Origin: Escherichia phage vB_EcoM_TU01
DNA: 64,000 nucleotides
Strand: one strand, 5' to 3'
Sequence record: MZ560701
The notes below the pieces were generated by a model that ran no database searches, was not told where the DNA came from, and saw only the letters and a program-made list of their open reading frames with translations. This document shows, one piece after another, positions 13,297-60,024 of this stretch. Every line of letters begins with the position of its first letter. Position 1 is the stretch's first letter. The position numbers and the translations under genes were made by a program.

Positions 13297-13300
13297 AGTA

Positions 13301-13329
13301 GTTTACTTCTCCTCTAGTTGTGTTACTAT
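13301..13329 (+). promoter_or_regulatory. early promoter
   Basis: GTTTAC, 17 nt, TACTAT then AGACCTTGTCAA. Confidence 0.55.
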
Positions 13330-13357
13330 AGACCTTGTCAACTAGAGGAGAAATCAA

Positions 13358-13816: not shown

Positions 13817-13824
13817 AGGTAAAC

Positions 13825-32036: not shown

Positions 32037-32043
32037 GGTACTT

Positions 32044-32337
32044 ATGGGTAAAACGTATCGTCGTAAAGATTTGAAAGTTCGTGATTACGACTATTTTGGT
32101 AAACGTAAAGCTCCTGACGGTGTTAGCCACAAAGACATGGTTGAAAACATATTCCGCTCAGATAAATGGAAACGTATGAAAGGCGTTGATTCCGAAGTCA
32201 AGAACGAAATGAATCGACAACTCCGCAAAGAAGTTCGTAAGTTGAAAAAAGATGTTTACAGTAAAGAAGATTATGATTATAATACTTCTCATACTGAAGC
32301 CAAACGTAAAGCCAACGAATGTTATCGTTACAGTTGA
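32044..32337 (+). CDS. hypothetical basic protein (97 aa)
   Basis: ORF with gagg RBS. Confidence 0.45.
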   Translation: MGKTYRRKDLKVRDYDYFGKRKAPDGVSHKDMVENIFRSDKWKRMKGVDSEVKNEMNRQLRKEVRKLKKDVYSKEDYDYNTSHTEAKRKANECYRYS

Positions 32338-32344
32338 GGAAATT

Positions 32345-32479
32345 ATGAATATCAAACGAATGCTTTTTAAGCAGGGATTATATACTTTAAATGTTAATCC
32401 AAAGGGTGATACAACTAAATGGTCTGTAAATGACTGGATTAAGTTCATCGACGAAAATGGGGCGTGGAACACAAAATGA
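32345..32479 (+). CDS. hypothetical protein (44 aa)
   Basis: Short ORF with gagga RBS. Confidence 0.35.
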   Translation: MNIKRMLFKQGLYTLNVNPKGDTTKWSVNDWIKFIDENGAWNTK

Positions 32480-32676
32480 ATCCTGAAAATATTGTGTCAT
32501 GGCAACTTCGTGAAGAACGTGCCAAATTCTTTGCCAACATGAAACTCAACGGTGTTGAGGATGAAGACTTTTTACGTTGGTTCTGGATTTACAAATACAA
32601 AGAATGCCAACATGCTGTGCTATTGACTTGCGCAGCTATGTACGAAGGCTGGAAAGGCGCTAAAAAGTTCGGTTAA
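32476..32676 (+). CDS. hypothetical protein (66 aa)
   Basis: ORF. Confidence 0.45.
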   Translation: MNPENIVSWQLREERAKFFANMKLNGVEDEDFLRWFWIYKYKECQHAVLLTCAAMYEGWKGAKKFG

Positions 32677-32979
32677 TAATGTACAACGATAGGAAGACAT
32701 GTTATTATCTTCCTATCGTCTTAAAATGAGGAAAATATCATGGCCCAAGAATTAGANNNNNNNNNNNNNNNNNNNNNNNNNNNNNNNNNNNNNNNNNNNN
32801 NNNNNNNNNNNNNNNNNTATGACATTTTAACAGATGCTATTACTGTTAGTTGTGGTGGAAANNNNNNNNNNNNNNNNNNNACTGAAAACAAATACCCAAT
32901 CTATAAAGGCATCTTTGATATGGGTGTTGATATTAGNNNNNNNNNNNNNNNNNNNNNNNNNNNNNNNNNNNNNAAATAA

Positions 32980-33014
32980 TGCACAAACTCTTGAGAGCAG
33001 AGTATAATGCTCTC
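32980..33014 (+). promoter_or_regulatory. sigma70-type promoter with inverted repeat around TATAAT (second copy of the 2371-2414 element)
   Basis: Exact 44-nt repeat 32984-33027. Confidence 0.55.
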
Positions 33015-33045
33015 ATTGGATAATAAAATAACCGAGGAAAATAAT

Positions 33046-33378
33046 ATGTCTACTAAAATCAAAAACGTAGTTAATTCTTTCGCTTTCGATAAAGTTGTTG
33101 CTCTTCTGGAATCCGGCAATATTGTTACTCCTCAAGTTCTTGACGCGTGGGAATTCCGTCTTTATGAAATCATGCAAAAACACGACCAGAAAATTGGACG
33201 TAATTCTATTCGTGAAATTCTAGTACAATATATTCTTTCTGAATTTGACGTTGCTGCATTTGGTGTTGAATCTAAAGCTTATCAGAAACATGAAATCTCT
33301 GAAAAGACTATCCGTCGTATGAAAAATCAACGTAAGAAAAAATTCGTTGACCTGAAAATTGTTAAGGCGGTAAAATGA
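33046..33378 (+). CDS. hypothetical protein (110 aa)
   Basis: ATG 33046 after gagga RBS. Confidence 0.55.
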   Translation: MSTKIKNVVNSFAFDKVVALLESGNIVTPQVLDAWEFRLYEIMQKHDQKIGRNSIREILVQYILSEFDVAAFGVESKAYQKHEISEKTIRRMKNQRKKKFVDLKIVKAVK

Positions 33379-33602
33379 GCGTATTAACAGAAACTTTGAT
33401 TAATGACCTGCGTCTAGCTGGTTACGAAGTTGGTACAAATAGTCTAGGTCTTTCTCAGATTGAAGGGCTTGGATTTATCCTAGAATATGAATTCAAACAA
33501 TGGTGGCTATATGCTACGGCTGACGATGCGTTGAATATTGATTTCGTTGACCAATTTGATTCGTTGGATGCTGCTCTTGAAGCAGCAAAGGAACTAGAAT
33601 GA
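33375..33602 (+). CDS. hypothetical acidic protein (75 aa)
   Basis: ORF. Confidence 0.45.
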   Translation: MSVLTETLINDLRLAGYEVGTNSLGLSQIEGLGFILEYEFKQWWLYATADDALNIDFVDQFDSLDAALEAAKELE

Positions 33603-33868
33603 AATTAACTCGAATCAGTATAACTGAAGAAAAGCTGGGCGAATTTTATGTTGACGAATACATGAAAGTCACGTATTTTCCATTCGTTAAAGGTGTTGGT
33701 TTTTGGGAAACTCATGTATCTCAATTAAACGAAGGCGACTATAACGAAACACATGAGAACTTTTTAGATTTTCTTTATAATGCCGGTCTTACTGAGCTTT
33801 ATATCGATATCCATGAGTTCAAACGTTTAATGGAAAAAGTGTTTCAGGCTTATTGTTTGCTCCGATAG
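33599..33868 (+). CDS. hypothetical protein (89 aa)
   Basis: ORF. Confidence 0.45.
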   Translation: MKLTRISITEEKLGEFYVDEYMKVTYFPFVKGVGFWETHVSQLNEGDYNETHENFLDFLYNAGLTELYIDIHEFKRLMEKVFQAYCLLR

Positions 33869-33940
33869 TATCTCGTGCTTTAAGATAGGTCTCTAAATAT
33901 TATGATATAATAGACCTATGAATTGAGCCAAGAGGTACTT

Positions 33941-34498
33941 ATGACTGAACAAAAACCTAAAAATAACTATGTGAATAATAAAGAGCTTCTCGCCGCTATA
34001 ATCGAGTGGAAAAAGGAGCTCTTAAATAATAAAGACCCAAACAAAATTATTCGTCAGAATGATACCATCGGTTTAGCAATTATGCTTATCGCCGAAGGCC
34101 TGTCCAAACGTTTCAACTTTTCAGGATATACCCAGTCTTGGAAGCAGGAGATGATTGCAGATGGGATTGAAGCCTCTATTAAGGGACTTCATAATTTCGA
34201 CGAAACTAAGTACAATAACCCACATGCATACATAACTCGAGCTTGTTTTAATGCTTTTGTCCAACGTATCAAAAAAGAACGTAAGGAAGTTGCAAAGAAA
34301 TATAGTTACTTCGTTCATAATGTCTACGACAGTCATGACGATGATATGGTAGCGTTGGTAGATGAAACGTTTATTCAAGACATCTACGATAAAATGACGC
34401 ATTATGAAGAATCCGCTTATAAAGCTCCTGGGGCTGAAAAGAAGGAAGTTGTTAGCGATTCGCCTAGTTTGGATTTTTTATATGAGGATGACAATTGA
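33941..34498 (+). CDS. 55: late-transcription sigma factor gp55
   Basis: [51 protein letters not shown] closely matches T4 gp55. Confidence 0.95.
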
Positions 34499-34697
34499 CA
34501 TCTCTAACTACTTAGAAGAACCTTTTGACGAAGCAATCCCTTATTTGGTAAAACTGTTGGGTCGTGAATTTAAAATTAATTTTGACATCGACCCTTTGAA
34601 CCCACATGACGTGTCATTTTCGATAAATGGGACTCCGGTTGAGTATGAGTTCTGTATTGAAGAGGACGGACGTTTTTATTTTAATTTAATGAGATAA
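34482..34697 (+). CDS. hypothetical protein
   Basis: ORF overlapping the end of gene 55. Confidence 0.4.
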
Positions 34698-34698
34698 T

Positions 34699-35022
34699 AT
34701 GACTACCGAGATTATTGAAAATAAAGAAGCAGAAGATGCAGTAGCTAAAATGCTACAAGAAATCCAAANGAAAAATGAAGCTGAAGCACGTAAAAAATCC
34801 GAAAAGATTCTTAAAAAGAATCGTTTTGAACTAAACCGTCTTTATGCTCATGCTCAAGAAGCAGCAATTCAAAACAACTTCGAAGCTTACGAATATGCTA
34901 TTAAGAAATCTCGGGATATTCTACGACAACCATATAATGACAAGTTAATTAAAATCCAGTGGATTACTACTCGTCAGGCTATTGAGGACATCATTAATGG
35001 CGCTAGTTCAAACAAAGTTTAA
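34699..35022 (+). CDS. hypothetical protein (107 aa)
   Basis: ORF. Confidence 0.45.
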   Translation: MTTEIIENKEAEDAVAKMLQEIQXKNEAEARKKSEKILKKNRFELNRLYAHAQEAAIQNNFEAYEYAIKKSRDILRQPYNDKLIKIQWITTRQAIEDIINGASSNKV

Positions 35023-35203
35023 ACGTCTGAAGCTGAACGCAGGGTTCACCCTTAAATTGGGAGGTCCTCTTTGTGTTAAAATTTCTGAAAAGGAATATCA
35101 CGACGGTTCTATTACAGAAATTTGTCCGCCTATTGTAAAGGCAGACCCAAAACAACTCGTGTGGGTTGATTCATTTCAAGTTAAGAAATGGTGGAAACGA
35201 TGA
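34997..35203 (+). CDS. hypothetical protein (68 aa)
   Basis: ORF. Confidence 0.4.
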   Translation: MALVQTKFKRLKLNAGFTLKLGGPLCVKISEKEYHDGSITEICPPIVKADPKQLVWVDSFQVKKWWKR

Positions 35204-35242
35204 GAGAAATCGATTTAGGNNTTTTCTGAGAGGTGCTTATGC

Positions 35243-35416
35243 ATGACGAACGACCCGACCTCTGAAAATTTCGATAAAATCCGTAAAGGCAAAGCAGAAA
35301 GAATGAGACGTTTTAAAGAGTCTTATGATAAAGCTAAAGCCGAAGGAACTATTACATACAAGCCCATTCGATTTAAAAGTTCAAATGAGCCTCTGTACGG
35401 TGTACTATGTGGATAG
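35243..35416 (+). CDS. hypothetical small basic protein (57 aa)
   Basis: ORF below track cutoff, followed directly by a terminator. Confidence 0.35.
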   Translation: MTNDPTSENFDKIRKGKAERMRRFKESYDKAKAEGTITYKPIRFKSSNEPLYGVLCG

Positions 35417-35440
35417 GAACTCTTCGGAGTTCCTTTTTTG
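35416..35440 (+). terminator. rho-independent terminator
   Basis: ggaactc-ttcg-gagttcc then T6. Confidence 0.7.
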
Positions 35441-35462
35441 CTTTATAAACGGATGATAGAAT
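35436..35462 (+). promoter_or_regulatory. middle-type promoter (TGCTTTA, 11 nt, TAGAAT)
   Basis: MotA-box-like TGCTTTA at 35439-35445 upstream of gene 47. Confidence 0.45.
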
Positions 35463-35485
35463 GAATTAACTAATGAGGAAATAAT

Positions 35486-36505
35486 ATGAAAATTTTAAAT
35501 TTAGGTGATTGGCATTTAGGTGTTAAAGCCGATGATGAGTGGGTTCAATCCATTCAGTTGGATGGAATTAAACAAGCAATAGAATATTCTAAGAAAAANG
35601 GAATTACTACATGGATTCAATACGGCGATATTTTTGATGTGCGAAAAGCAATCACNCATAAAACTATGGANTTCGCNCGTGAAATAGTTCAAATGCTTGA
35701 TGATGCTGGTATTACCCTACATACTGTNGTAGGAAACCATGATATGCACTTTAAAAATACTTTAACTCCAAATGCTTCTACTGAGCTTTTGGCTAAATAT
35801 CCTAATGTTAAAGTATATGATAAGCCNACTACNGTAGATTTTGATGGATGTTTGATTGATTTAATTCCATGGATGTGTGAAGAAAATACAGGTGAAATCT
35901 TAGAGCACATCAAGACTTCTTCAGCAGCGTATTGTGTTGGGCACTGGGAACTGAATGGCTTTTATTTCTATAAAGGAATGAAGTCTCATGGGCTTGAACC
36001 TGATTTCTTAAAGACCTATAAACAAGTCTGGTCTGGCCACTTCCACACAATCTCTGAAGCTGCTAACGTCAAATATATTGGGACACCATGGACCCTTACT
36101 GCAGGCGATGAGAACGACCCTCGAGGATTCTGGGTATTTGACACTGATGTTGAACGTATGGAATTTATTCCTAATGAAACAACATGGCATCGACGAATCA
36201 CTTATCCGTTTAAAGGCAAAATCAATTATTCTGATTATACTAATCTAGCCGTACGTGTTATAGTATCAGAAATTGATTCAGAGTTGACTAAGTTTGAATC
36301 TGAACTTGAAAAAGTAGTTCACTCTCTTCGTATGGTTTCTAAAGTTGATAACAGTGTTGAATCTGATGATGACCAGGAAATCGAGATTAAATCACTTCAA
36401 GATATCATTAAAGAATATATTGACGCGATTCCAGATATCTCAGACGAAGACAGAGAAGCGCTGGTCAAATATTCCAACGAACTTTATATTGAGGCAACAC
36501 AATGA
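35486..36505 (+). CDS. 47: recombination nuclease subunit gp47 (Mre11-like)
   Basis: MKILNLGDWHLG phosphoesterase start; 339 aa; directly upstream of gp46. Confidence 0.9.
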   Translation: MKILNLGDWHLGVKADDEWVQSIQLDGIKQAIEYSKKXGITTWIQYGDIFDVRKAIXHKTMXFXREIVQMLDDAGITLHTXVGNHDMHFKNTLTPNASTELLAKYPNVKVYDKXTXVDFDGCLIDLIPWMCEENTGEILEHIKTSSAAYCVGHWELNGFYFYKGMKSHGLEPDFLKTYKQVWSGHFHTISEAANVKYIGTPWTLTAGDENDPRGFWVFDTDVERMEFIPNETTWHRRITYPFKGKINYSDYTNLAVRVIVSEIDSELTKFESELEKVVHSLRMVSKVDNSVESDDDQEIEIKSLQDIIKEYIDAIPDISDEDREALVKYSNELYIEATQ

Positions 36506-42126: not shown

Positions 42127-44838
42127 ATGAAAGAATTTTACTTAACGGTTGAACAGATTGGTGATTCAATTTTTGAACGTTACATCGATTCTAATGGCCG
42201 TGAACGTACTCGTGAAGTAGAATATAAACCATCACTGTTTGCTCATTGTCCAGAAAGTCAGGCTACGAAATATTTCGATATCTACGGTAAGCCGTGTACT
42301 CGTAAGTTGTTCGCTAATATGCGTGATGCCTCCCAATGGATTAAACGCATGGAAGATATCGGACTTGAAGCACTTGGCATGGACGATTTCAAATTGGCGT
42401 ATTTGTCTGACACTTATAACTATGAAATCAAATACGACCATACAAAAATTCGTGTGGCTAACTTCGACATCGAAGTAACATCTCCGGACGGGTTCCCTGA
42501 GCCGTCACAAGCAAAACATCCGATTGATGCTATCACCCATTATGACTCAATTGACGACAGGTTCTACGTATTTGATCTATTGAATTCTCCATATGGTAAT
42601 GTAGAAGAATGGTCTATCGAAATCGCTGCTAAGCTTCAAGAACAAGGCGGTGATGAAGTTCCATCCGAAATTATCGATAAAATCATTTATATGCCGTTCG
42701 ATAACGAAAAAGAATTGTTGATGGAATATCTCAACTTCTGGCAACAGAAAACTCCTGTCATTTTGACTGGATGGAACGTTGAGTCATTTGATATTCCATA
42801 TGTGTATAACCGAATCAAGAATATTTTTGGCGAATCTACTGCGAAACGTTTATCACCACATCGTAAAACTCGTGTTAAAGTTATCGAAAACATGTATGGT
42901 TCTCGTGAAATCATTACATTGTTCGGTATCTCTGTTCTTGATTACATTGACCTTTACAAAAAATTCTCTTTTACCAATCAACCGTCGTATTCTCTGGATT
43001 ACATTTCAGAATTTGAATTGAACGTTGGTAAACTGAAATATGACGGCCCTATTTCTAAGCTTCGTGAAAGCAATCACCAACGATACATTTCTTATAACAT
43101 TATCGACGTGTATCGTGTATTGCAAATTGATGGTAAACGTCAGTTCATTAACTTGAGCTTGGACATGGGTTATTATGCTAAGATACAGATTCAATCTGTG
43201 TTTAGCCCAATTAAAACATGGGATGCTATTATTTTTAATAGCCTTAAAGAGCAGAACAAGGTGATTCCACAAGGTCGTTCTCACCCGGTTCAACCTTATC
43301 CTGGCGCTTTTGTTAAGGAACCTATTCCAAATCGATACAAATATGTGATGAGCTTCGACCTCACATCTCTGTATCCAAGTATTATTCGCCAAGTGAATAT
43401 TAGCCCAGAAACAATAGCAGGAACGTTTAAAGTAGCTCCATTGCATGATTATATTAACGCTGTTGCTGAACGTCCTTCTGATGTGTACAGTTGTTCTCCT
43501 AACGGCATGATGTATTATAAAGACCGTGACGGTGTTGTTCCAACTGAAATCACTAAGGTCTTTAATCAACGTAAAGAACATAAAGGTTANATGCTTGCAG
43601 CTCAACGTAATGGTGAAATAATTAAAGAGGCATTGCATAATCCTAATCTTTCTGTTGACGAACCATTAGATGTTGATTATCGTTTCGACTTCAGTGATGA
43701 GATTAAAGAAAAGATTAAAAAGTTGTCTGCTAAATCTCTTAATGAAATGTTGTTTAGAGCTCAACGTACTGAAGTTGCAGGTATGACTGCACAGATTAAC
43801 CGTAAATTGCTTATCAACTCNCTTTATGGTGCACTTGGAAACGTNTGGTTCCGTTATTANGATTTGCGTAATGCTACTGCAATCACAACATTCGGGCAAA
43901 TGGCTTTACAGTGGATTGAACGTAAAGTTAATGAATATCTGAATGAAGTTTGTGGCACAGAAGGTGAAGCTTTCGTTCTTTATGGTGATACAGACTCTAT
44001 TTACGTATCTGCNGATAAAATTATCGATAAGGTTGGTGAATCTAAATTCCGTGATACCAACCATTGGGTAGACTTCTTAGATAAGTTTGCACGTGAACGT
44101 ATGGAACCAGCTATTGATAGAGGTTTCCGTGAAATGTGTGAATATATGAACAATAAACAACACTTAATGTTCATGGACCGAGAAGCTATCGCTGGTCCTC
44201 CGCTCGGTTCTAAAGGTATTGGTGGATTCTGGACTGGTAAGAAACGTTATGCATTAAACGTGTGGGATATGGAAGGTACTCGTTACGCTGAACCTAAGCT
44301 TAAAATCATGGGTCTCGAGACGCAGAAATCTTCGACTCCTAAAGCAGTACAGAAAGCTCTTAAAGAATGTATTCGTCGTATGCTTCAAGAAGGTGAAGAA
44401 TCATTACAAGAATATTTTAAAGAGTTTGAAAAAGAATTCCGTCAATTGAATTATATTAGCATCGCGTCGGTATCTTCTGCGAATAACATTGCTAAATATG
44501 ATGTAGGTGGATTCCCTGGTCCCAAATGTCCGTTCCATATTCGTGGAATTCTGACGTATAACCGGGCTATCAAAGGTAATATCGATGCACCGCAAGTTGT
44601 AGAAGGTGAAAAAGTATATGTTCTGCCTTTACGTGAAGGAAACCCATTCGGTGATAAATGTATCGCATGGCCTTCTGGTACTGAAATCACAGATTTAATT
44701 AAAGACGACGTACTTCATTGGATGGACTACACTGTTCTCCTTGAGAAGACATTTATTAAACCACTTGAAGGATTCACATCAGCAGCGAAACTCGATTACG
44801 AGAAGAAAGCATCTCTGTTCGATATGTTCGATTTTTGA
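42127..44838 (+). CDS. 43: DNA polymerase gp43 (family B)
   Basis: 903 aa; exonuclease and polymerase motifs (DIE, YGDTDS); sequence matches the RB69 gp43 I recall. Confidence 0.97.
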   Translation: MKEFYLTVEQIGDSIFERYIDSNGRERTREVEYKPSLFAHCPESQATKYFDIYGKPCTRKLFANMRDASQWIKRMEDIGLEALGMDDFKLAYLSDTYNYEIKYDHTKIRVANFDIEVTSPDGFPEPSQAKHPIDAITHYDSIDDRFYVFDLLNSPYGNVEEWSIEIAAKLQEQGGDEVPSEIIDKIIYMPFDNEKELLMEYLNFWQQKTPVILTGWNVESFDIPYVYNRIKNIFGESTAKRLSPHRKTRVKVIENMYGSREIITLFGISVLDYIDLYKKFSFTNQPSYSLDYISEFELNVGKLKYDGPISKLRESNHQRYISYNIIDVYRVLQIDGKRQFINLSLDMGYYAKIQIQSVFSPIKTWDAIIFNSLKEQNKVIPQGRSHPVQPYPGAFVKEPIPNRYKYVMSFDLTSLYPSIIRQVNISPETIAGTFKVAPLHDYINAVAERPSDVYSCSPNGMMYYKDRDGVVPTEITKVFNQRKEHKGXMLAAQRNGEIIKEALHNPNLSVDEPLDVDYRFDFSDEIKEKIKKLSAKSLNEMLFRAQRTEVAGMTAQINRKLLINXLYGALGNXWFRYXDLRNATAITTFGQMALQWIERKVNEYLNEVCGTEGEAFVLYGDTDSIYVSXDKIIDKVGESKFRDTNHWVDFLDKFARERMEPAIDRGFREMCEYMNNKQHLMFMDREAIAGPPLGSKGIGGFWTGKKRYALNVWDMEGTRYAEPKLKIMGLETQKSSTPKAVQKALKECIRRMLQEGEESLQEYFKEFEKEFRQLNYISIASVSSANNIAKYDVGGFPGPKCPFHIRGILTYNRAIKGNIDAPQVVEGEKVYVLPLREGNPFGDKCIAWPSGTEITDLIKDDVLHWMDYTVLLEKTFIKPLEGFTSAAKLDYEKKASLFDMFDF

Positions 44839-44878: not shown

Positions 44879-45514
44879 ATGAAAACTACTCCTATTACTA
44901 TCGCTATTGACGCAATCATAAAACAAGCTTCTTCTTTGGCCGCTATGGCCAAAGTAATTAGTCAAAACCCTGCTCGTTATAATGCTATTCTAGAAACTCT
45001 TCGACGCCCAGGACTTAGNAATTANGAAAGCCGAGTAATTATTACAGGTGTTGGTAAGAATGCTAATATTGCAACTAAAGCTTCTGAGACATTTGCTTCA
45101 CTCGGTATCCCGAGTATGTACTTGAACACCGGGCATTATTCTCACGGTGATGCAGGATTCATTGCGCCTAATGATGTGTTGATTCATATTAGTCGTTCTG
45201 GTAAAACTGAAGAAATGATAGGCGTTGCTAAGCATCTTAAAATGATTCGTCCGAACGTCAAACAGATTCTGTTGCATTGTAACCCAGACATTCCACAAGA
45301 AAATGAAGCCCTTTTTGATTACTCTTTCTGTACAGGCATCGCAGTAGAGGTTGATGAGAATTCTCTGGCTCCGACTATGTCCACTACATTGTTGTTAGCG
45401 CTTATCGATACTTTTGCTATCAACCTTTCGTCTGAGCGTGGATTTACCTCTAATGACTTCCTTAAGTTCCACCCTGGTGGTGCACTAGGTGCCATGTTAC
45501 GAGGCGAACAATGA
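44879..45514 (+). CDS. SIS-domain sugar-phosphate isomerase (arabinose-5-phosphate isomerase KdsD/GutQ-like, no CBS domains)
   Basis: ITGVGKN...HGDAG...SRSGKTEE...APTMSTT...FHPGGALG parallel the E. coli KdsD SIS domain. Confidence 0.8.
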   Translation: MKTTPITIAIDAIIKQASSLAAMAKVISQNPARYNAILETLRRPGLXNXESRVIITGVGKNANIATKASETFASLGIPSMYLNTGHYSHGDAGFIAPNDVLIHISRSGKTEEMIGVAKHLKMIRPNVKQILLHCNPDIPQENEALFDYSFCTGIAVEVDENSLAPTMSTTLLLALIDTFAINLSSERGFTSNDFLKFHPGGALGAMLRGEQ

Positions 45515-45654
45515 AAGCAATAACAATAGGACTTTTACTATTGATGCTTGTCATGACTATCTACTGGAGCTTAACGGCTCCAGTAATGATTCCAACACTT
45601 GTAATTGGATGGATTATGATTGGACTACAAGCAAAGTATGAATGCTTTAACTAG
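45511..45654 (+). CDS. small membrane peptide (47 aa)
   Basis: Hydrophobic ORF overlapping upstream stop. Confidence 0.35.
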   Translation: MKAITIGLLLLMLVMTIYWSLTAPVMIPTLVIGWIMIGLQAKYECFN

Positions 45655-45695
45655 AATAGTGTACAATACTCCTACTTACCAATGAGGACNNCAAC

Positions 45696-47381
45696 ATGAA
45701 AAAAGCTGTTATTCTTGGTGCTGGACTGGCAACTCGTTTGTATCCAATAACGCATCATATTCCTAAGGTGCTTGTTAACTATAAACAAGACACTATTCTG
45801 AGCAATTTGTATACAATTTATTCTGACCTTGGCGCAGATGAAATTATTGTAGTAGTTCATTCAAAATTTGCTGAAACTGTTCGAGCTTATTGTGAGCAAG
45901 AAGGGTTCAATGTGACTATTCGTACAGTTGATGAAGCGTATGGTTCTGCTTATGCTCTTGCTAAATTACACAAAGATTTAGACGGCCATAATGTAATTGT
46001 TAACTGGTGTGATATTATTCCTGATTTTGGTTCATGGTCTTGGAATGTTAACGCAATCTATGTTAAGGGTGATGAATGTCGATATAATTTCGACGGTGAA
46101 AATATCACTAACGTAGGTTCAACAGGTGGTAATGTTGTAGGAATTTATCAGTTCAAAGACTGGGAATTCTATATGGGTTCTACTGATGAGGAAATTCATG
46201 AATACTGCAAAGGACGTGATTTCGTAGAATTCCTTTACGGCAGCGCATTCAATAAATCAGAGCTTATGAATCTAATTGATTTAGGTGATATGCCTAAACT
46301 TGAAAAAGCTCATGAAGTTCGTGAACTTAATCGTAGTTTTAATGCAGTTGAAATTGGTGAAGAAACTGTAACTAAATTCGCATTAACCGAACAGGGTCGA
46401 GCTCTTCAGAAAGATGAGATTTCATGGTATCTTAAAGTGAAATCAGATTCAGTTCCTCAGTTAGTTTCTGTTAATGAAAATAACTTTGAAATGGAACGCA
46501 TTAAAGGTAAGCCGGCATTTGAATATATTAAATCCAAATCGAGTCTTGCTCGTCCACAAATTGTTGATGCAATTTTAGATGCACTGAAATTCAGCACAGA
46601 CACTTATTTTGTAAGTCCTGAAACTGTTCGTCGTGATTTCACTAAAGAATTCTATACGAAAGTTATTGATCGTTGTGAAAGTATTCAACCATTGATTGAT
46701 TCATTTGGTAAAATCACACATGTGAACTACACTAAGATTGGACGTCTGAAGCCAATGCTGAAACAAGCTTTAGAACACCTTATTCGTTATCATAACCGTT
46801 CTCAGGGACAGTACTCTGTTATTCATGGCGACCCGAACTTCAGTAATACTATGATTACTGATAACGGCGAAGTCAAGTTTATCGACCCTCGTGGATATTT
46901 TGGTGAAACCAAGATTTACGGGCCAAAATTGTACGATGAAGCTAAAGTGCTTTATGCTGTTTCAGGTTATGATGAATTCAACGCTAATCCGACCTGGGGA
47001 CAGTTTACTATTGACGAAACAACTTGTAATGTGACTATTAACATCAATCCATTAATTTACAAATATGGAAAGCTGAGTTCGTTTAACGAGTATCATCATT
47101 TGGCCGTAGCAATTATCTGGATTGCATTAGGTGGTTATTTCAAGAATAATCCACTTAAAGCGGTAGCCGCATATTATAAAGGTATGGAACTTCTGACTAA
47201 GCAATTACGTAACATGGGCCGTGTACTTCAAGACGGCTCTATTAGTTATGACGTAGCAGAACCTGTAACGGCTACTCTGATTACAAAAAATCCTGGTAAA
47301 TGGGTACTAACTGATAAAGAAACTGGTGTTTCCTATCGTCCAATCGGTGGCGATATCACTCATCAATGGGAACGAATCTAA
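45696..47381 (+). CDS. bifunctional sugar-1-phosphate nucleotidyltransferase / APH-ChoK-like kinase
   Basis: N-terminal ILGAGLATRL (GxGTRL sugar-NTase motif); C-terminal HGDPNFSN...KFIDP (kinase catalytic loop). Confidence 0.75.
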   Translation: MKKAVILGAGLATRLYPITHHIPKVLVNYKQDTILSNLYTIYSDLGADEIIVVVHSKFAETVRAYCEQEGFNVTIRTVDEAYGSAYALAKLHKDLDGHNVIVNWCDIIPDFGSWSWNVNAIYVKGDECRYNFDGENITNVGSTGGNVVGIYQFKDWEFYMGSTDEEIHEYCKGRDFVEFLYGSAFNKSELMNLIDLGDMPKLEKAHEVRELNRSFNAVEIGEETVTKFALTEQGRALQKDEISWYLKVKSDSVPQLVSVNENNFEMERIKGKPAFEYIKSKSSLARPQIVDAILDALKFSTDTYFVSPETVRRDFTKEFYTKVIDRCESIQPLIDSFGKITHVNYTKIGRLKPMLKQALEHLIRYHNRSQGQYSVIHGDPNFSNTMITDNGEVKFIDPRGYFGETKIYGPKLYDEAKVLYAVSGYDEFNANPTWGQFTIDETTCNVTININPLIYKYGKLSSFNEYHHLAVAIIWIALGGYFKNNPLKAVAAYYKGMELLTKQLRNMGRVLQDGSISYDVAEPVTATLITKNPGKWVLTDKETGVSYRPIGGDITHQWERI

Positions 47382-47767
47382 TGCACCGTGTAGAAAACAT
47401 GCTTAATCTTTGTTTTGATGTCGATGATTGTATAACAGAGTGGAATAACAATCGTGATTACGTGAACTTCAAGCCGGACGTCGAAATGGTGAATGCCATT
47501 AATGCCCTGTATGATGCAGGGCACACAATAACGCTTTACACTGCTCGCGGTATGAAGTCAGTAGGTCCTGGTCGTATAGCAATTGACATTCTCCCAAGTC
47601 TTATTCAGAACTTGGCAAACATTGGCTTGAAGTACCATAATTTGCTAACACATAAACCAGTATATGATTGGATTATCGACGACAAAGCTATGCGTCCTGA
47701 CGAATTCAAAGCTCTTATGAATAAAGGCGAATTCGAAACATTTAAATCATATAAACCGAATCTATAA
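47380..47767 (+). CDS. HAD-family phosphatase
   Basis: DxDx motif CFDVDDCIT near N-terminus; small KdsC-like size. Confidence 0.65.
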
Positions 47768-47821
47768 TAATTTAAGTAAGACCTGCAAAAACCATCGCAT
47801 CAATTAACGCGAGATGCAAAA

Positions 47822-48982
47822 ATGAATACTTTTAAAATCGGAACGAATTTTGATTTAGCTCTTCTTGATAAAATCGTAGAGCTCAATAAAACTTATCCTA
47901 ATAGCTTGATAAACGAAGTATATGGCTCTACAAGAGAAATGGCTTTTGTAGCAGCCAGACCTGATTTTAGGCTTCCTGACGTTGACAAAAAGATGTTAGA
48001 AGATTACGTTAAACGTTGTAACGAATTAGGTATTTGCTTTAACTATACACTCAACACGATAAATCCTGGTTCAAAAAGAGAACTAGTTGAGTGGAAGAAG
48101 AAAGCTATTCAGGACTATGTTCAGTATCTTTGGTCAATAGGCGTATGGCGTATTACTATCGCTAACCCTGTTGTTATGGAAATTGTTCGTGAAGTCAATA
48201 AAGACATTGAGATTGAAGTTTCAACAATTTTACATGTCGATGCTGTAACTCAAATCAAATACTTACATGACCAGTATAATATCAAAAAGGTCTGCTGTGG
48301 AATTCATAAGAACCGTTCAGTTTCTTTCCTGAAGCGTGCAGCAGAGTTTTGCAATAAGAACAATATAATATTTGAAGTTCTTGTAAATGAGTTCTGTTCT
48401 AATGCTGGTAAAGGGTATACAACACATTGTAGCTATCGTGACTCTTGCTATATTTTCCATAGTACTGATGTTACAGCTGATGATGCTAAATCCTTAAATG
48501 GATATCCTATGCAGCACTGTATTAAAGCTCGTGATACAGACCCATTTAACTGGTTGAGAACTCGTTTTGTTCGTCCACAAGATTTGAAACTTTATAATGA
48601 TATTGGTATCACTCAATTTAAAGTTTCGGGACGTACAGGTAGCACCGACTACATTTTGAAAGTTCTTGAAGCTTATGCTTCTGAAAAGTTTGAAGGTAAT
48701 TTGTTGGAATTGTGGAAGCCTTTAGAGACCATTTTCACTCTTGAAAATGAGACCGAGTTTTCACATACGGTAAATATTGAAACCTCTTTGTTAGACGGCT
48801 TTTTAGAAAAAAGGTGGTTCAGACATCCGGATTTCGATTGTGCTAATGAAATCTGCGGGACGACGTGTACATATTGTGAAAGATATTATAAACGTCAGTT
48901 ATCTAAAAATGGGTTATCAGAAAATTCTATATCTATTATTGATATAACTAACTCTGACGACGCTTTGAGGTACCCAGAATGA
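47822..48982 (+). CDS. Cys-rich enzyme of unknown function (386 aa)
   Basis: Long ORF; Cys clusters EFCSNAGKGYTTHCSYRDSC and CANEICGTTCTYC. Confidence 0.6.
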   Translation: MNTFKIGTNFDLALLDKIVELNKTYPNSLINEVYGSTREMAFVAARPDFRLPDVDKKMLEDYVKRCNELGICFNYTLNTINPGSKRELVEWKKKAIQDYVQYLWSIGVWRITIANPVVMEIVREVNKDIEIEVSTILHVDAVTQIKYLHDQYNIKKVCCGIHKNRSVSFLKRAAEFCNKNNIIFEVLVNEFCSNAGKGYTTHCSYRDSCYIFHSTDVTADDAKSLNGYPMQHCIKARDTDPFNWLRTRFVRPQDLKLYNDIGITQFKVSGRTGSTDYILKVLEAYASEKFEGNLLELWKPLETIFTLENETEFSHTVNIETSLLDGFLEKRWFRHPDFDCANEICGTTCTYCERYYKRQLSKNGLSENSISIIDITNSDDALRYPE

Positions 48983-49216
48983 TTTCTAGAAAAACTTTTA
49001 ACCACCAACTTAATGAAGAGATTTTGACTATAAAAATTAACAGCAACGAACAAATTCTTAAAAAGGCCCTTATGGGCCTGTTTGAAACTAAAGCGGCTAA
49101 AGCGATTAAAGAAACCTGTTCAACTAGAATACTATGCCGACGCATTCCTTCATAGTGTCCTTGGAAGTATTGATGCCGAAGCTCTACGTTATATCAACAT
49201 CGCTAAGAAATTCAAA

Positions 49217-49242
49217 TAAGCTTTATGAATTGAGTATATAAT
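49217..49242 (+). promoter_or_regulatory. middle-type promoter (GCTTTA, 11 nt, TATAAT)
   Basis: Upstream of gene 42. Confidence 0.45.
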
Positions 49243-49261
49243 AAACTGTATTGAGGTAAAC

Positions 49262-49978
49262 ATGGGAAAACATAACACAATGAAATATATTAAAGCCGCA
49301 GATTTTCAATCCGCATTTAAAGCTGTCAATCGTGAAATTTTAGAAAACCCAGAATTCGTAACTGATTCTCGTATTGGACGTTGTAATGAAATTGGGTCTA
49401 TGACAGTAGTTGTTGACACTCCATCATCATTCAAAATGACCGACCCACGTATTAACCGCATCTCTTATGAATATGCCGAAGATTTCTGGAAATTTATGAT
49501 TTCTGGCGGNACTGANGCAGAAGAAGCATTTAAGGCATATCCTAATGTCGCTAAATTTATTTCTAAACCAAAATCAGACGCTTTGCCTGCGAACTTCAAC
49601 ACTTTCTATGGTCCTCGCATTGCGGCCCAATTACCAGCTCTTCTAAAAGAACTTAAAGAGAAGCCTAACTCTCGAAGAGTTGTGTTCCAAATTCTTGAAA
49701 GTTCTGATCAGGCTTTGCTTGATTCGGACGAAACGCTTGAATATCCATGTACTGACTCAGTGACTTATTATATTCGTGATGGTAAGCTTTATACCCACTG
49801 TCATATGCGTTCCCAGAACTGTGCTGTTGTTATGCAGTTGGATTTTTATCTCCAAGGAAAATTACTTCATTATATCGCTAAAGAATGCGGTGTAGAAGTT
49901 GGTGATTATACTCATACCATGGTAAGTGCCCATGTGTTTGAACGTGATTTTGATTATGTTAAAGGATTCCTTGACTAA
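49262..49978 (+). CDS. 42: dCMP hydroxymethylase (thymidylate-synthase fold)
   Basis: Syntenic with T4 gene 42; candidate nucleophile in EYPCTDSVTYY; diverged from T4. Confidence 0.75.
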   Translation: MGKHNTMKYIKAADFQSAFKAVNREILENPEFVTDSRIGRCNEIGSMTVVVDTPSSFKMTDPRINRISYEYAEDFWKFMISGXTXAEEAFKAYPNVAKFISKPKSDALPANFNTFYGPRIAAQLPALLKELKEKPNSRRVVFQILESSDQALLDSDETLEYPCTDSVTYYIRDGKLYTHCHMRSQNCAVVMQLDFYLQGKLLHYIAKECGVEVGDYTHTMVSAHVFERDFDYVKGFLD

Positions 49979-50877
49979 TGGCTATTTTCCGCGTACCTAT
50001 CTTGAGTATGCGGTCTTATGAAACCGGACAGTATGCTATCCTTAAGGATGGCAACTTCCAACTTCATTTGCACCGTGCTAATCCGGGTGATGTGATTACA
50101 TATCCACGTAATGCATCTGATATTAAAGAATGTGAACGTCTTTTCCCAGAATTTAAGTTTGTTCCATTATGGTATAAAGATAACGCGTATAACACTCGTA
50201 AATATTTCTGGTCTGAAAATGAATTTGTGGTTGATTCATTAATTGCTTATTATGATTGTGATTTTCTAATCACAGATATCACTGGATATGACGGAGCTTT
50301 TGATGTAGAATTCAATTTCAATATCACTGCAGACCCTAATAAACCACGTTTTTATATTGACGAATTCTTAAAAACCGACATGTTGTCGGTTAATCGTTCA
50401 CTTCAAACTACTGTGTTGAATGAACGTCAAAAAGAAGTGCTGGTTAACGCTGGTGCAGATGGTAATAAGATTATCGTAACCCAGAAAGTTATACGTCCTT
50501 CCATCATGCAGCGTCTTGTAGGTGATTTGGCTCCTATTCATCTAGATGGTATTTTTCATCCATTTCGAATTAGTGACCCGTGCTATCGTTTTGAACAAGT
50601 GGTTGAATGTGCAATTCAATTAGGTCAACCGCTTTATGTAACCGATCCAAATAATAGTTTCGATAGAAATAAGTATCCTGAAGAAGCGCTGATTCGAATT
50701 TTTAAACCAACTAAAACTGAGTACTATCAAATTCTTAAAGGACGGCCGAAGATTCAATATTTCGAAAATCCTGAAGAAGTATTCCATCCAGGTCTTGGCG
50801 AGTTCATCTACTTTAATGCTTTAATTTCTTCACCGTATAATATACCTAAATACGAAGATGTCGTAATCGAGGAATAA
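49978..50877 (+). CDS. hypothetical protein at the beta-glucosyltransferase position (candidate DNA sugar transferase)
   Basis: 299 aa ORF directly after gene 42; no similarity to T4 beta-gt recognised. Confidence 0.5.
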   Translation: MAIFRVPILSMRSYETGQYAILKDGNFQLHLHRANPGDVITYPRNASDIKECERLFPEFKFVPLWYKDNAYNTRKYFWSENEFVVDSLIAYYDCDFLITDITGYDGAFDVEFNFNITADPNKPRFYIDEFLKTDMLSVNRSLQTTVLNERQKEVLVNAGADGNKIIVTQKVIRPSIMQRLVGDLAPIHLDGIFHPFRISDPCYRFEQVVECAIQLGQPLYVTDPNNSFDRNKYPEEALIRIFKPTKTEYYQILKGRPKIQYFENPEEVFHPGLGEFIYFNALISSPYNIPKYEDVVIEE

Positions 50878-50878
50878 A

Positions 50879-51427
50879 ATGGCTAAAATTATTTTAGTAG
50901 ATGGCCCGGATAATGCTGGTAAAACAACTTTCATTAATGATATAATGGAAATTAGTGAAAGATATGTAAAGATTGATTTCCCTAAACGAACAGTTGATGG
51001 ACGTTTCGATGTTAAGTCTCGAAATGAAGTTGGCTGTTTCGAAACGATGTTGAATTATTTAGACCCTACTAAGATTTATCTGTTAGACCGTGGATATATT
51101 AGTAACTGGGTTTATGGACGTATTCGACAAGATGCGGACTCGGTTCTTGACGTTTATGAACAGGATTATGTTCGTCTTTGCCAAAACCATGATGTGTTCA
51201 CAATTATTTTAACACGTAACGAAATGACTGAAAGTTTTGAAGACGACCTTATTACTTTGTCTTCATTCGGTTTTAATACAGTCATTTCACATTTTGAAGA
51301 GTTTGCAATTCATAACAAAATCCAAACGTATCAATTACTTAATCATGATGGTGCTAACAAAGTTATAGGATTTAATGCAAGCGAACGTAATTATTTGATT
51401 ACAGAAATTATCAAATGGGCTCGTTAA
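50879..51427 (+). CDS. P-loop kinase-like protein
   Basis: Walker A GPDNAGKTT at N-terminus; 182 aa. Confidence 0.55.
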   Translation: MAKIILVDGPDNAGKTTFINDIMEISERYVKIDFPKRTVDGRFDVKSRNEVGCFETMLNYLDPTKIYLLDRGYISNWVYGRIRQDADSVLDVYEQDYVRLCQNHDVFTIILTRNEMTESFEDDLITLSSFGFNTVISHFEEFAIHNKIQTYQLLNHDGANKVIGFNASERNYLITEIIKWAR

Positions 51428-51446
51428 GAGCCTGTTTAAAGTTTTT

Positions 51447-51527: not shown

Positions 51528-52700
51528 ATGTCTGATTTAAAATCTCGTCTGATTAAAGCTTCTACTTCTAAAATGACTGCAGACTTGACTAAGTCTAAGC
51601 TGTTTAATAATCGTGATGAAGTCCCTACTCGTATTCCGATGTTGAATATTGCATTAGGTGGTGCACTGAATGCCGGGTTGCAATCAGGCTTAACTATTTT
51701 TGCTGCTCCTTCTAAACACTTTAAAACGTTGTTTGGACTGACCATGGTTGCAGCATATATGAAGAAATATAAAGATGCAATTTGTTTGTTCTATGATTCA
51801 GAATTTGGTGCTTCAGAATCTTATTTTCGTTCAATGGGTGTTGATTTAGACCGTGTAGTTCATACTCCGATTCAATCTGTCGAACAACTTAAAGTTGATA
51901 TGACTAATCAGCTTGACGCGATTGAACGTGGTGATAAAGTTATTATCTTTATCGATTCAATCGGTAATACTGCATCTAAGAAAGAAACTGAAGATGCGTT
52001 GAACGAGAAAGTTGTAGGTGATATGTCTCGTGCTAAGGCACTTAAATCTCTGTTCCGCATTGTGACTCCTTATCTGACTATTAAAGATATTCCATGTGTT
52101 GCAATCAACCATACAGCAATGGAAATCGGCGGACTATATCCTAAAGAGATTATGGGCGGTGGTACAGGTATTCTTTACTCTGCTAACACTGTATTCTTTA
52201 TCTCTAAACGTCAGGTTAAAGAAGGTACAGAATTGACCGGNTANGANTTCACGTTGAAAGCAGAAAAATCTCGTACAGTTAAAGAGAAATCTACTTTCCC
52301 GATCACGGTTAATTTTGATGGCGGTATTGACCCATTCAGTGGCTTGTTAGAAATGGCAACTGAAATTGGTTTTGTAGTTAAGCCTAAAGCCGGTTGGTAC
52401 GCTCGCGAATTCCTTGACGAAGAAACAGGCGAAATGATTCGTGAAGAAAAATCATGGCGTGCTAAAGCTACTGATTGTGTAGAATTCTGGGGACCATTGT
52501 TTAAACACAAACCTTTCCGAGATGCAATTGAAACTAAATATAAACTAGGTGCTATCTCTTCTATTAAAGAAGTTGATGACGCTGTTAATGACCTTATTAA
52601 TTGCAAAGCAACAACTAAAGTTCCGGTTAAAACTTCTGATGCTCCGTCTGCAGCAGATATAGAAAACGACCTTGACGAAATGGAAGATTTCGATGAATAA
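51528..52700 (+). CDS. uvsX: UvsX recombinase (RecA-like)
   Basis: 390 aa; matches T4 UvsX. Confidence 0.95.
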   Translation: MSDLKSRLIKASTSKMTADLTKSKLFNNRDEVPTRIPMLNIALGGALNAGLQSGLTIFAAPSKHFKTLFGLTMVAAYMKKYKDAICLFYDSEFGASESYFRSMGVDLDRVVHTPIQSVEQLKVDMTNQLDAIERGDKVIIFIDSIGNTASKKETEDALNEKVVGDMSRAKALKSLFRIVTPYLTIKDIPCVAINHTAMEIGGLYPKEIMGGGTGILYSANTVFFISKRQVKEGTELTXXXFTLKAEKSRTVKEKSTFPITVNFDGGIDPFSGLLEMATEIGFVVKPKAGWYAREFLDEETGEMIREEKSWRAKATDCVEFWGPLFKHKPFRDAIETKYKLGAISSIKEVDDAVNDLINCKATTKVPVKTSDAPSAADIENDLDEMEDFDE

Positions 52701-59502: not shown

Positions 59503-60024
59503 ATGGCACACTTTAACGAATGTTCACAACTTATTTCTGGTGTTGATAAAGCAGAAGAAGCTTATTTTAATGCTCTGATTCACGAAGATAAAGACCCACT
59601 GCAGGTAATGCTTGATATGCAGAAATCTTTACAGGTTCGTCTGGCAAATGACAAGCCTGAACATAACAAACATCCTGATGAATTGGCCACTGCTGGTGAT
59701 GTTGTTGATTGGCTGCGTAATCAGAAAGATTATATTGATGATGAATTCCGTGAACTGCTGACTTCACTTGGTGGTATGAGCAATGGCGAAAAAGCCGCTA
59801 GCTCTGTATGGAAGCCGTGGAAAGCACAACATGCTGAATATCGAAATCGTCGTATCGATGAACTGTCTCCTGAAGACCAGCTTGAAATTAAATTCGAGAT
59901 GATTGATATNCTGCACTTTGTTCTGAATATGTTCCAAGGTCTGGGTCTTTCGGCTGAAGAAATCTTTAAACTTTACTACTTGAAAAACCAACACAACTTT
60001 GAACGCCAGGATAATGGTTACTGA
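59503..60024 (+). CDS. 56: dCTPase/dUTPase gp56 (MazG-like)
   Basis: MAHFNEC...DPLQVMLDMQ...DELATAGDVVDWLR...IDDEFRELLTSLG closely matches T4 gp56. Confidence 0.9.
   Translation: MAHFNECSQLISGVDKAEEAYFNALIHEDKDPLQVMLDMQKSLQVRLANDKPEHNKHPDELATAGDVVDWLRNQKDYIDDEFRELLTSLGGMSNGEKAASSVWKPWKAQHAEYRNRRIDELSPEDQLEIKFEMIDXLHFVLNMFQGLGLSAEEIFKLYYLKNQHNFERQDNGY

Follow-up and report, generated by a model that had tools for sequence, protein, structure and literature searches.

A probable cytosine arabinosylation cluster in a Mosigvirus genome and a possible oxygen-independent role for its U32-family protein

Escherichia phage vB_EcoM_TU01 (sequence record MZ560701) was analysed as a stretch of 64,000 nucleotides, referred to here as the window, and we examined the gene cluster at positions 44879-51427, which lies between the DNA polymerase gene (42127-44838) upstream and uvsX (51528-52700) downstream. 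Seven open reading frames (ORFs) on the same (+) strand fill this interval, all at the coordinates given in an earlier reading of the letters alone (the original prediction), and both the ORF positions and the profile matches agree with the domains it had assigned to the seven genes. Minus-strand ORFs in the interval are all shorter than 70 amino acids (aa) and have no support, and the GC content of the region is even (0.34-0.40). The cluster, two small ORFs within it and one related gene farther downstream are as follows:

44879-45514, + strand: predicted single-domain SIS arabinose-5-phosphate isomerase, RB69 gp55 homologue (211 aa; PF01380, TIGR00393, phrog_5670)
45489-45641, + strand: small ORF between the SIS and fusion genes (from the ORF list)
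45696-47381, + strand: predicted kinase/nucleotidyltransferase fusion, RB69 gp52:53 homologue, HY126 AfhE type (561 aa; PF00483, phrog_4098)
47366-47767, + strand: small HAD-type phosphatase, RB69 gp51 homologue, HY126 AfhF type (133 aa; TIGR01689, PDB 9iqw_A)
47822-48982, + strand: U32-family Fe-S protein, RB69 gp50 homologue (386 aa; PF01136)
48979-49220, + strand: gp49-like small ORF, frameshifted (phrog_8601, unknown function)
49262-49978, + strand: predicted thymidylate-synthase-fold dCMP 5-hydroxylase, RB69 gp48 homologue (238 aa; PF00303, D169N signature)
49978-50877, + strand: predicted compact GT-B DNA glycosyltransferase, homologue of RB69 gp46:47, 'arabinosyltransferase 1' (299 aa)
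50879-51427, + strand: P-loop thymidylate-kinase-like nucleotide kinase, RB69 gp45 homologue (182 aa; phrog_761)
59503-60024, + strand, beyond the cluster: dCTPase of the T4 gp56 / RB69 gp28 type (phrog_173)

The 6.5-kb cluster stretch shares 97.8% nucleotide identity with RB69 and 98.4% with phage NHEP36, and 151 phage records cover at least 80% of it; the window therefore belongs to a Mosigvirus. The same gene set is syntenic in 11/11 Straboviridae loci examined (nine from a phage collection, representing different genera or hosts, together with the LC53 locus and one metagenomic contig), and in each of them the sugar module sits between DNA polymerase and uvsX, beside the hydroxylase and the DNA glycosyltransferase. 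We consider it very probable that the region is the cytosine arabinosylation cluster of Mosigvirus, that is, of T4-like phages of the RB69/HY126 type. Both cluster and pathway have already been published, in 2025-2026, and the question left by the original prediction, whether these genes had been assigned experimentally, can be answered mostly in the affirmative.

The gene that fixes the identity of the modified base is the ThyA homologue at 49262-49978. Its product matches Thymidylat_synt (PF00303, 1.8e-15) and keeps the catalytic Cys146, but at E. coli ThyA position 169 it carries Asn (RSQN) where T4 gp42 has Asp (RSND), and it also carries N177D (dCMP specificity) and L143E; the window has HMRSQNCAVVMQLDF, as against NMRSNDVVFGFRNDY in T4 gp42 and YQRSCDVFLGLPFNI in E. 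coli. The D169N substitution, with N177D and L143E, is diagnostic of 5-hydroxy-dCMP synthases (Lee et al., 2026; PMC13326640). Among solved structures the protein matches 9iqc/9ir2 (E 5.3e-160), differing at 4 of 238 aligned positions, and by tblastn RB69 gp48 is 98.3% identical to it. RB69 gp48 yields 5-hydroxy-dCMP, takes its oxygen from 18O2 and has FMN bound (Lee et al., 2026; PMC13326640). Judged by its sequence, the 49262-49978 product is a flavin- and O2-dependent dCMP 5-hydroxylase and not a hydroxymethylase; because this gene 42 homologue bears the D169N hydroxylase signature, the base is expected to be 5-hydroxycytosine and not 5-hydroxymethylcytosine (5-hmC).

The original prediction had named the gene 'gene 42', a dCMP hydroxymethylase, and had taken 5-hmC as the acceptor; both claims fall, the first to the D169N, N177D and L143E residues and the 9iqc/9ir2 match, the second to the published structure of the nucleoside, an ether-linked 5-hydroxycytosine (PMC13326640, PMC13390438). 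The idea has a history: the gene occupies the position of T4 gene 42, several records annotate it as dCMP hydroxymethylase, and Thomas et al. (2018; PMC6024577), who found arabinose on RB69 DNA, first took the product to be arabinosyl-hmC (ara-hmC), the first report for this DNA. That the ThyA homologue is a T4-gp42-type enzyme and the sugar sits on 5-hmC is nevertheless very unlikely, since Asn169 marks 5-hydroxy-dCMP synthases while T4 gp42 has Asp, and RB69 gp48 made 5-hydroxy-dC with 18O from O2 (PMC13326640). Moreover, NMR and mass spectrometry (MS) place the arabinose of RB69 DNA in ether linkage directly at C5 of cytosine, through the 5-hydroxycytosine oxygen, in both mono- and di-arabinosyl-5-hydroxycytosine (PMC13326640), and Mosigvirus NP contains 5-ara-dC and 5-ara-ara-dC, the earlier ara-hmC assignment being termed erroneous (PMC13390438).

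The sugar branch begins with the SIS protein, which matches PF01380 (7.8e-11), KpsF/GutQ (TIGR00393, 2e-32), KdsD (5.9e-31) and the 'arabinose 5-phosphate isomerase' family phrog_5670 (1.9e-114). Because it has a single SIS domain, it misses the full-length cutoffs for KpsF/GutQ (112.9 vs 203.7 bits) and KdsD (107.9 vs 505); the tandem CBS domains of the full-length KdsD/GutQ architecture are absent from its 211 aa. It is thus a predicted arabinose-5-phosphate (Ara5P) isomerase, forming Ara5P from ribulose-5-phosphate, yet not a KdsD or GutQ equivalog, and the same role was given to RB69 gp55 by structure comparison, without an assay (Lee et al., 2026; PMC13326640). No SIS isomerase gene is present in the cluster stretches read from Marfavirus F48, Klebsiella phage Clarke_MM3, Proteus phage PM2 and JS98 (L003, L005, L019, L022), which presumably rely on host KdsD/GutQ for Ara5P. 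The small ORF at 45489-45641 overlaps the end of the SIS gene, and small genes are annotated in the same place in RB69 (ORF054c), NHEP36 and LC53, that of LC53, between the SIS and fusion genes, as a 'transmembrane segment'.

The adjoining fusion protein matches NTP_transferase (PF00483, 8.5e-10) at aa 3-99, sugar-1-phosphate nucleotidyltransferases of NCBIfam (best 6.9e-14) and phrog_4098 (9e-295). Its second half had been described as an APH/ChoK-type kinase, which holds: the kinase character is backed by weak matches to kinase families (fructosamine kinase, EcKL, RIO1) at aa 308-409 and by an HGDPNFSN (HxDxxxxN) motif in the translation. We read the 561-aa ORF as an AfhE-type fusion of an N-terminal sugar-1-phosphate nucleotidyltransferase with a C-terminal APH/ChoK-like kinase. 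In RB69, ORF053c and ORF052c are one 561-aa gene, and ORF055c and ORF53_52c were proposed as UDP-arabinose genes (Thomas et al., 2018; PMC6024577). As reported second-hand from He et al. (2026) in PMC13326640, HY126 AfhE is an Ara5P 1-kinase and, with UTP, a UDP-Ara pyrophosphorylase, and AfhF takes the 5-phosphate off Ara-1,5-P2. The HAD protein of the window, whose translation shows a DVDD motif, matches the capsule-biosynthesis phosphatase family TIGR01689 (2.8e-13) and, in the PDB, 9iqw_A (E 2.1e-87) and 1xpj (4.9e-10). The PDB 9iq series, which contains the counterparts of both the ThyA homologue and the phosphatase, includes 9iqz, 'phage HY126 glycosyltransferase'; because the 9iqc/9ir2 and 9iqw matches share this deposition series, HY126 is by our inference a Mosigvirus nearly identical to this one, although HY126 does not appear in the PDB names of 9iqc and 9iqw themselves. 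In LC53 a homing endonuclease gene (L001 4352-4990) is inserted between the HAD and U32 genes.

Transfer of the sugar is assigned to the 299-aa protein, for which no domain family matched and a PDB sequence search likewise came back empty, and whose structure has the two Rossmann domains of a GT-B fold, as the original prediction had anticipated in calling for a glycosyltransferase-fold check. We predict that it puts the first arabinose on 5-hydroxycytosine in DNA; Lee et al. (2026) list gp46:47 in their Table 1 as 'arabinosyltransferase 1', without a mark of experimental confirmation (PMC13326640). Members of this family were found beside a D169N hydroxylase or a U32 gene in every locus read, and arabinose transfer by the family is supported by this constant company. 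The 182-aa protein, originally called P-loop kinase-like, matches the 'thymidylate kinase' family phrog_761 (2.4e-45), with a further weak match to dTMP kinase P-loop proteins, and Lee et al. (2026; PMC13326640), comparing structures, named RB69 gp45 a 'nucleotide kinase'. A terminator-like hairpin (51413-51437; 10 pairs, T-rich tail) overlaps the end of this gene, just before uvsX, and may be the 3' end of the cluster transcript. Farther downstream, the 59503-60024 product matches the nucleoside triphosphate pyrophosphohydrolases of phrog_173 (7.1e-45), and RB69 gp28 is listed as a dCTPase in Table 1 of Lee et al. (2026; PMC13326640). We count this gene in the same system because removal of dCTP leaves only the modified nucleotide for incorporation. 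The second arabinosyltransferase, RB69 gp3, should lie past the end of the window, as extrapolated from RB69 coordinates.

Assembled, the pathway would run as follows. The ThyA-fold enzyme would hydroxylate dCMP at C5 using flavin and O2, phage kinases would carry 5-hydroxy-dCMP to the triphosphate while the dCTPase clears dCTP, and the phage polymerase would incorporate 5-hydroxy-dC. In parallel, the SIS isomerase would convert ribulose-5-phosphate to Ara5P, the kinase half of the fusion would form arabinofuranose-1,5-bisphosphate, the HAD phosphatase would then strip the 5-phosphate, and the nucleotidyltransferase half would join Ara1P and UTP into UDP-arabinofuranose. The 299-aa GT-B enzyme would add the first arabinose to the cytosine 5-hydroxyl in DNA, and the RB69 gp3 homologue outside the window the next. 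The SIS, nucleotidyltransferase and HAD profile matches expected by the original prediction were recovered (PF01380 7.8e-11, PF00483 8.5e-10, TIGR01689 2.8e-13), published work assigns to the SIS, fusion, HAD and 299-aa proteins the roles that it gave them, and its central idea, that RB69-type phages make an NDP-arabinose and move it onto modified cytosine, agrees with the literature (PMC13326640, PMC6024577). It had placed dephosphorylation before anomeric phosphorylation; the published order is kinase, HAD phosphatase, uridylyl transfer (PMC13326640). Nor does its Cys-rich enzyme hold as a step in the sugar pathway: this U32 protein lies outside the published pathway, and related phages with arabinosyl-5-hydroxycytosine are without it.

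The structure of the nucleoside, the activity of the hydroxylase and the O2 origin of its oxygen, and the activities of AfhE and AfhF were established in near-identical phages. Three considerations weigh against the assignment of the cluster. It rests on 98-99% identity to those phages and not on DNA of this isolate; the roles of the isomerase, the Mosigvirus 299-aa transferase and the thymidylate-kinase-like protein are inferred from homology or fold alone; and mono- and di-arabinosylation cannot be told apart here, because the second arabinosyltransferase lies outside the window. That the sugar module instead serves host-surface, capsule or lipopolysaccharide chemistry (KDO- or capsule-type), as database names such as 'capsule biosynthesis protein', 'phosphoheptose isomerase' and 'KpsF/GutQ' might suggest, is extremely improbable, with the module fixed between DNA polymerase and uvsX in 11/11 Straboviridae loci, arabinose sitting on virion DNA (PMC13326640, PMC6024577, PMC13390438) and UDP-arabinose being the outcome of AfhE and AfhF activities as relayed in PMC13326640. 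As published, such a cluster gives fully substituted, sugar-coated cytosines, by which many restriction enzymes are resisted in vitro and defence-system responses are affected.

The U32 protein (47822-48982) is the member of the cluster that this pathway leaves without a part. It matches Peptidase_U32 (PF01136) at 7.3e-11, with 42.2 bits against a gathering cutoff of 22.4. Its AlphaFold2 model (pLDDT 92.3), compared with the PDB by Foldseek, has as its best match the U32 protein 5d88 (E 1.4e-6; target-normalised TM 0.69), instead of the glycosyltransferase fold for which the original prediction had proposed a check; a PDB search with the sequence returned nothing. The model thus gives the protein a U32 TIM-barrel fold. 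Across 67 homologues spanning 47-87% identity, nine cysteines (158, 192, 203, 209, 233, 340, 345, 349 and 352) and E190 are invariant, and the C-terminal cysteines form a CX4CX3CX2C motif.

Relationships to characterised U32 proteins are distant. UbiU was the only characterised subfamily hit in NCBIfam, at 18.5 bits against a cutoff of 440, and hmmsearch of the phage profile against the four E. coli U32 proteins gave less than 16 bits for each. By hhalign, RlhA was matched with 81% probability (E 1.2e-5) and each of the other three at 15% or less. In the RlhA alignment the phage residues E190, C203 and C209 pair with RlhA E161, C169 and C176 (phage NEF...HC-SYRDSCYIFH, RlhA EF...LCVAYSGQCYISH); this equivalence depends on the alignment, because plain MAFFT pairs the cysteines one out of step with this. 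The phage protein has no equivalent of RlhA's long, RNA-associated C-terminal region. These comparisons place it in a separate, very divergent subfamily without orthologues among the E. coli U32 enzymes, and a search of 1.84 billion proteins found 480 cluster representatives of this subfamily at E<=1e-30.

What the U32 enzymes of cells do bears directly on this protein. The 5-hydroxycytidine 2501 of 23S rRNA depends on RlhA, on prephenate and on Fe-S biogenesis, and in RlhA C169, C176 and two C-terminal cysteines are essential, E161 nearly so (PMC5727448). TrhP supports prephenate-dependent formation of ho5U34 in tRNA, in parallel to the O2-dependent TrhO; its E162/C170/C177 triad is essential in vivo, and its authors regard the U32 motif as strongly implicated in pyrimidine C5 hydroxylation (PMC6599085). 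For UbiU/V, prephenate is the oxygen donor, and under anaerobic conditions the pair stands in for the flavin hydroxylases UbiI/H/F (PMC10990095).

We therefore read the surroundings of the phage U32 genes. The gene occurs in 221 phage records, all at an identity of at least 80%, with hosts, among the matches listed, in Enterobacterales or Shewanella, and it lies within the DNA-modification cluster in 7/7 U32-bearing T4-like loci read. A chorismate mutase gene (PF01817, 1.7e-11) accompanies it in 54 of the 221 records. The encoded enzyme keeps R11, R28, K39, E52 and S84 of E. coli chorismate mutase and mostly Q88, D48 and R51 being absent, and its gene lies within ~1 kb of the U32 gene in three gene orders, directly adjacent in most loci read: U32-chorismate mutase-ThyA in LC53, F48, TG1 and Proteus PM2; ThyA-glycosyltransferase-kinase-U32-chorismate mutase in Shewanella phage Thanatos-1; and chorismate mutase-U32-ThyA in the metagenomic contig L015. 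A small ORF or a homing-endonuclease insertion separates the two genes in TG1 and Proteus PM2, the latter (L005 4932-5615) having a homing endonuclease. Mosigviruses hold an unrelated small gene, gp49, where other genera carry the chorismate mutase. We considered RB69 gp49 as a degenerate chorismate mutase and rejected it (no Pfam or NCBIfam match, 13-20% identity to the phage enzymes, BLASTP E = 8).

More distant U32 homologues (48-58% identical) were all found in phage-like contexts. In these non-T4 contigs ~8 kb was read on each side of the U32 gene, and ~4 kb downstream in L025 and L026, where the contig ends. In L014 the order is 299-aa-family glycosyltransferase, SIS, nucleotidyltransferase/kinase fusion, U32, DAHP synthase and epimerase, the synthase matching DAHP synthase at 2.6e-70 as against 2.9e-17 for KDO8P synthase. 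In L024 a thymidylate-kinase-like gene and a 299-aa-family glycosyltransferase precede U32, and a TET-associated glycosyltransferase and a dUTPase/DCD gene follow, with UDP-galactopyranose mutase farther away. L025 and L026 share the order radical SAM, 299-aa-family glycosyltransferase, U32 and DNA polymerase III alpha. Within the 4-8 kb read on each side, none of these four contigs has a ThyA homologue. The megaphage-like L010 and L013 place a dCMP deaminase gene before U32, with thymidylate kinase and UDG nearby; the gene after U32 in both was considered as a DAHP synthase like that of L014 and rejected. L011 combines U32 with NT5C, dNK, a nucleoside deoxyribosyltransferase and a second, divergent U32-like gene (13227-14360). 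Radical SAM genes, often SPASM, accompany U32 in four contigs (L010 1-249, L011 12160-13185, L025 5972-7000, L026 5980-7011), most of which encode a PolIII-alpha-type polymerase nearby; this company suggests a multi-component oxygen-sensitive system.

In the jumbo-phage-like contigs L027-L029 a 299-aa-family gene closely follows a D169N ThyA homologue, being the next gene in L028 and L029 and set apart by one 200-aa ORF in L027, and the 10 kb read on each side holds no U32 gene. The 299-aa glycosyltransferase family thus accompanies a ThyA-type hydroxylase, a U32 protein or both, the pattern expected of non-orthologous enzymes with the same job. Upstream of the ThyA homologue and glycosyltransferase genes in these three contigs is a Flavodoxin_2 gene (PF02525; L027 1978-2523, L028 8426-8932, L029 8739-9293), near the ThyA homologue in L028 and L029 and ~6 kb from it in L027. 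Its product is a candidate flavin reductase partner of the flavin-dependent dCMP hydroxylase.

The one demonstrated route to 5-hydroxy-dCMP requires O2, yet these phages destroy dCTP and infect gut bacteria that are often anoxic. We tentatively propose that the phage U32 protein is an O2-independent pyrimidine C5 hydroxylase that feeds DNA modification, with prephenate as its oxygen donor. The subfamily would hydroxylate C5 of a pyrimidine deoxynucleotide or of DNA, prephenate replacing O2. In enterobacterial T4-like phages it would act as the anaerobic partner of the flavin/O2-dependent dCMP hydroxylase, supplying 5-hydroxycytosine in an anoxic host or gut so that cytosine replacement continues; many phages would feed it by their own chorismate mutase, and in other lineages it would be the only hydroxylase feeding DNA glycosylation. 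In the literature available to us, to which the full texts of He 2026 and Mahler 2025 did not belong, we found nothing that links U32, chorismate mutase or prephenate to phage DNA modification: the discussion of Lee et al. (2026) names RNA pyrimidine-hydroxylation pathways without a tie to gp50 (PMC13326640), the Thanatos paper modelled TH1_065 and reports nothing on it, and a phage transposon-mutagenesis preprint contains no essentiality data for the cluster genes.

Several observations speak against this proposal. U32 is missing from the clusters of Dhakavirus coliphages (JS98), Pseudomonas phage PspYZU05 and Acinetobacter phage Maestro and is therefore dispensable for modification as such; no chorismate mutase could be recognised in Mosigviruses; L014 and L024-L026 could carry a ThyA homologue past the stretches read; and direct hydroxylase activity of RlhA and TrhP was undemonstrated as of 2024 (PMC10990095). 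Among hydroxylase-bearing phage records no U32 gene was seen for Acinetobacter (0/57) or Rhizobium (0/20), nor in Pseudomonas phages. Absence from phages of strict aerobes fits an anaerobic role, although a single gain or loss, or two, might account for it, and we dropped host aerobiosis as strong evidence, since the Dhakavirus coliphages also lack U32 and the evolutionary events may be few.

The strongest competing explanation, doubtful in our view though to be taken seriously, is that the U32 protein plays no part in hydroxylation and is a peptidase, a 'sugar or heterocycle reductase' or an accessory gene product of unrelated function. The family is named for a peptidase and Table 1 of Lee et al. 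(2026) labels RB69 gp50 a reductase, but that label comes without reasoning (PMC13326640). The same facts that trouble our proposal count in favour of this rival: the undemonstrated RlhA and TrhP activities (PMC10990095), the JS98-like Dhakaviruses that keep the remaining cluster genes, and the Mosigviruses without chorismate mutase; so does the weak similarity to RlhA, TrhP and UbiU/V. On the other hand, the characterised subfamilies all serve O2-independent, prephenate-dependent hydroxylation, two of them at pyrimidine C5 (PMC10990095, PMC5727448, PMC6599085), and phage U32 proteins invariably keep the Glu-Cys-Cys triad on which RlhA and TrhP depend. A peptidase or reductase would also leave unexplained the chorismate mutase neighbour (54 genomes, three orders) and the DAHP synthase of L014.

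The protein could instead hydroxylate RNA (phage or host tRNA or rRNA, as TrhP and RlhA do) and not a DNA precursor; its best hhalign match is RlhA, and T4-like phages encode tRNAs. Both characterised pyrimidine-directed U32 enzymes target RNA (PMC5727448, PMC6599085). We judge this unlikely: the gene sits inside the DNA-modification cluster in all seven U32-bearing T4-like loci, RlhA's RNA-associated region is absent, and the non-T4 neighbours are dCMP deaminase, thymidylate-kinase-like, dNK, NT5C, nucleoside deoxyribosyltransferase, DNA glycosyltransferase and sugar-nucleotide genes.

If the phage U32 protein is indeed an O2-independent hydroxylase of DNA precursors or DNA, it would explain how these phages replicate under anoxia and would give U32/prephenate chemistry its first DNA-directed role. 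It would also offer a small soluble phage enzyme with a simple candidate substrate for in vitro study of a chemistry that is still unreconstituted, and would be relevant to phage therapy in anaerobic niches.

Some further features of the region can be recorded. The gp49-like ORF has one extra A (AAAGAAACC, ~49110-49116) relative to RB69 and NHEP36, giving a 58-aa ORF at 48979-49155 with the remainder in the +1 frame; either a miscounted homopolymer in sequencing or a genuine inactivation could account for this. Inside it, at 49065-49078, is a GC-rich hairpin (GGCCC-TTAT-GGGCC) followed by TGTTTG, identical in RB69 and different at one loop base in NHEP36. Directly upstream of the hydroxylase gene, 49218-49242 reads AAGCTTTA, 11 nt and TATAAT, a possible promoter resembling the consensus of T4 MotA-dependent middle promoters. 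A scan of the sequence for sigma-70 promoters found 22 where 27 were expected from shuffled sequence, no excess. N bases number 6 within the cluster region and 270 in the whole window, 127 of these at 32000-36000, and because of them X appears in several translations, such as those of DNA polymerase and UvsX.

The nearest known system, the RB69 gp45-gp55 or HY126 Afh cluster, shares gene content and gene order with the window cluster (97.8% nucleotide identity for RB69), and the hydroxylase and phosphatase of the window are near-identical to the solved 9iq-series chains. Differences are at the level of isolates: the RB69 GenBank record splits the fusion and 299-aa genes, both of which are intact in the window, and the RB69 gp49 ORF is unbroken where that of the window is frameshifted. 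The T4 gene 42 system differs in kind, using folate-dependent hydroxymethylation where the window type uses flavin/O2 hydroxylation (D169N), and placing glucose on the CH2OH group by alpha- and beta-glucosyltransferases in contrast to an ether-linked pentose. Since no NDP-arabinose is known from Enterobacteriaceae (Lee et al., 2026; PMC13326640), the phage has to supply the sugar nucleotide itself.

To RlhA, TrhP and UbiU/V the phage U32 protein is alike in its U32 domain, 5d88-like TIM barrel and Glu-Cys-Cys triad, and its CX4CX3CX2C tail recalls the essential C-terminal cysteines of RlhA. The link to prephenate is a genetic requirement in the cellular systems and a gene neighbourhood in the phage. 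As TrhP pairs with O2-dependent TrhO and UbiUV with UbiIHF, phage U32 is paired with a flavin hydroxylase; T4-like phages carry the NrdAB/NrdDG pair, a parallel for anaerobic and aerobic partner enzymes. Cellular U32 enzymes act on RNA or quinone, whereas for phage U32, carried by a phage wherever its context was read, a deoxynucleotide or DNA is the likely substrate. Finally, the hexosyl-5-hydroxycytosine system of RL38J1 (Pootjesviridae) combines a D169N ThyA-type hydroxylase, DNA glycosyltransferases and UDP-galactopyranose mutase (PMC13326640). It uses hexoses where the window cluster uses arabinose, and no U32 gene was detected in the Rhizobium phages; L024 likewise has the mutase and glycosyltransferases, with U32 in place of the ThyA-type enzyme of RL38J1.

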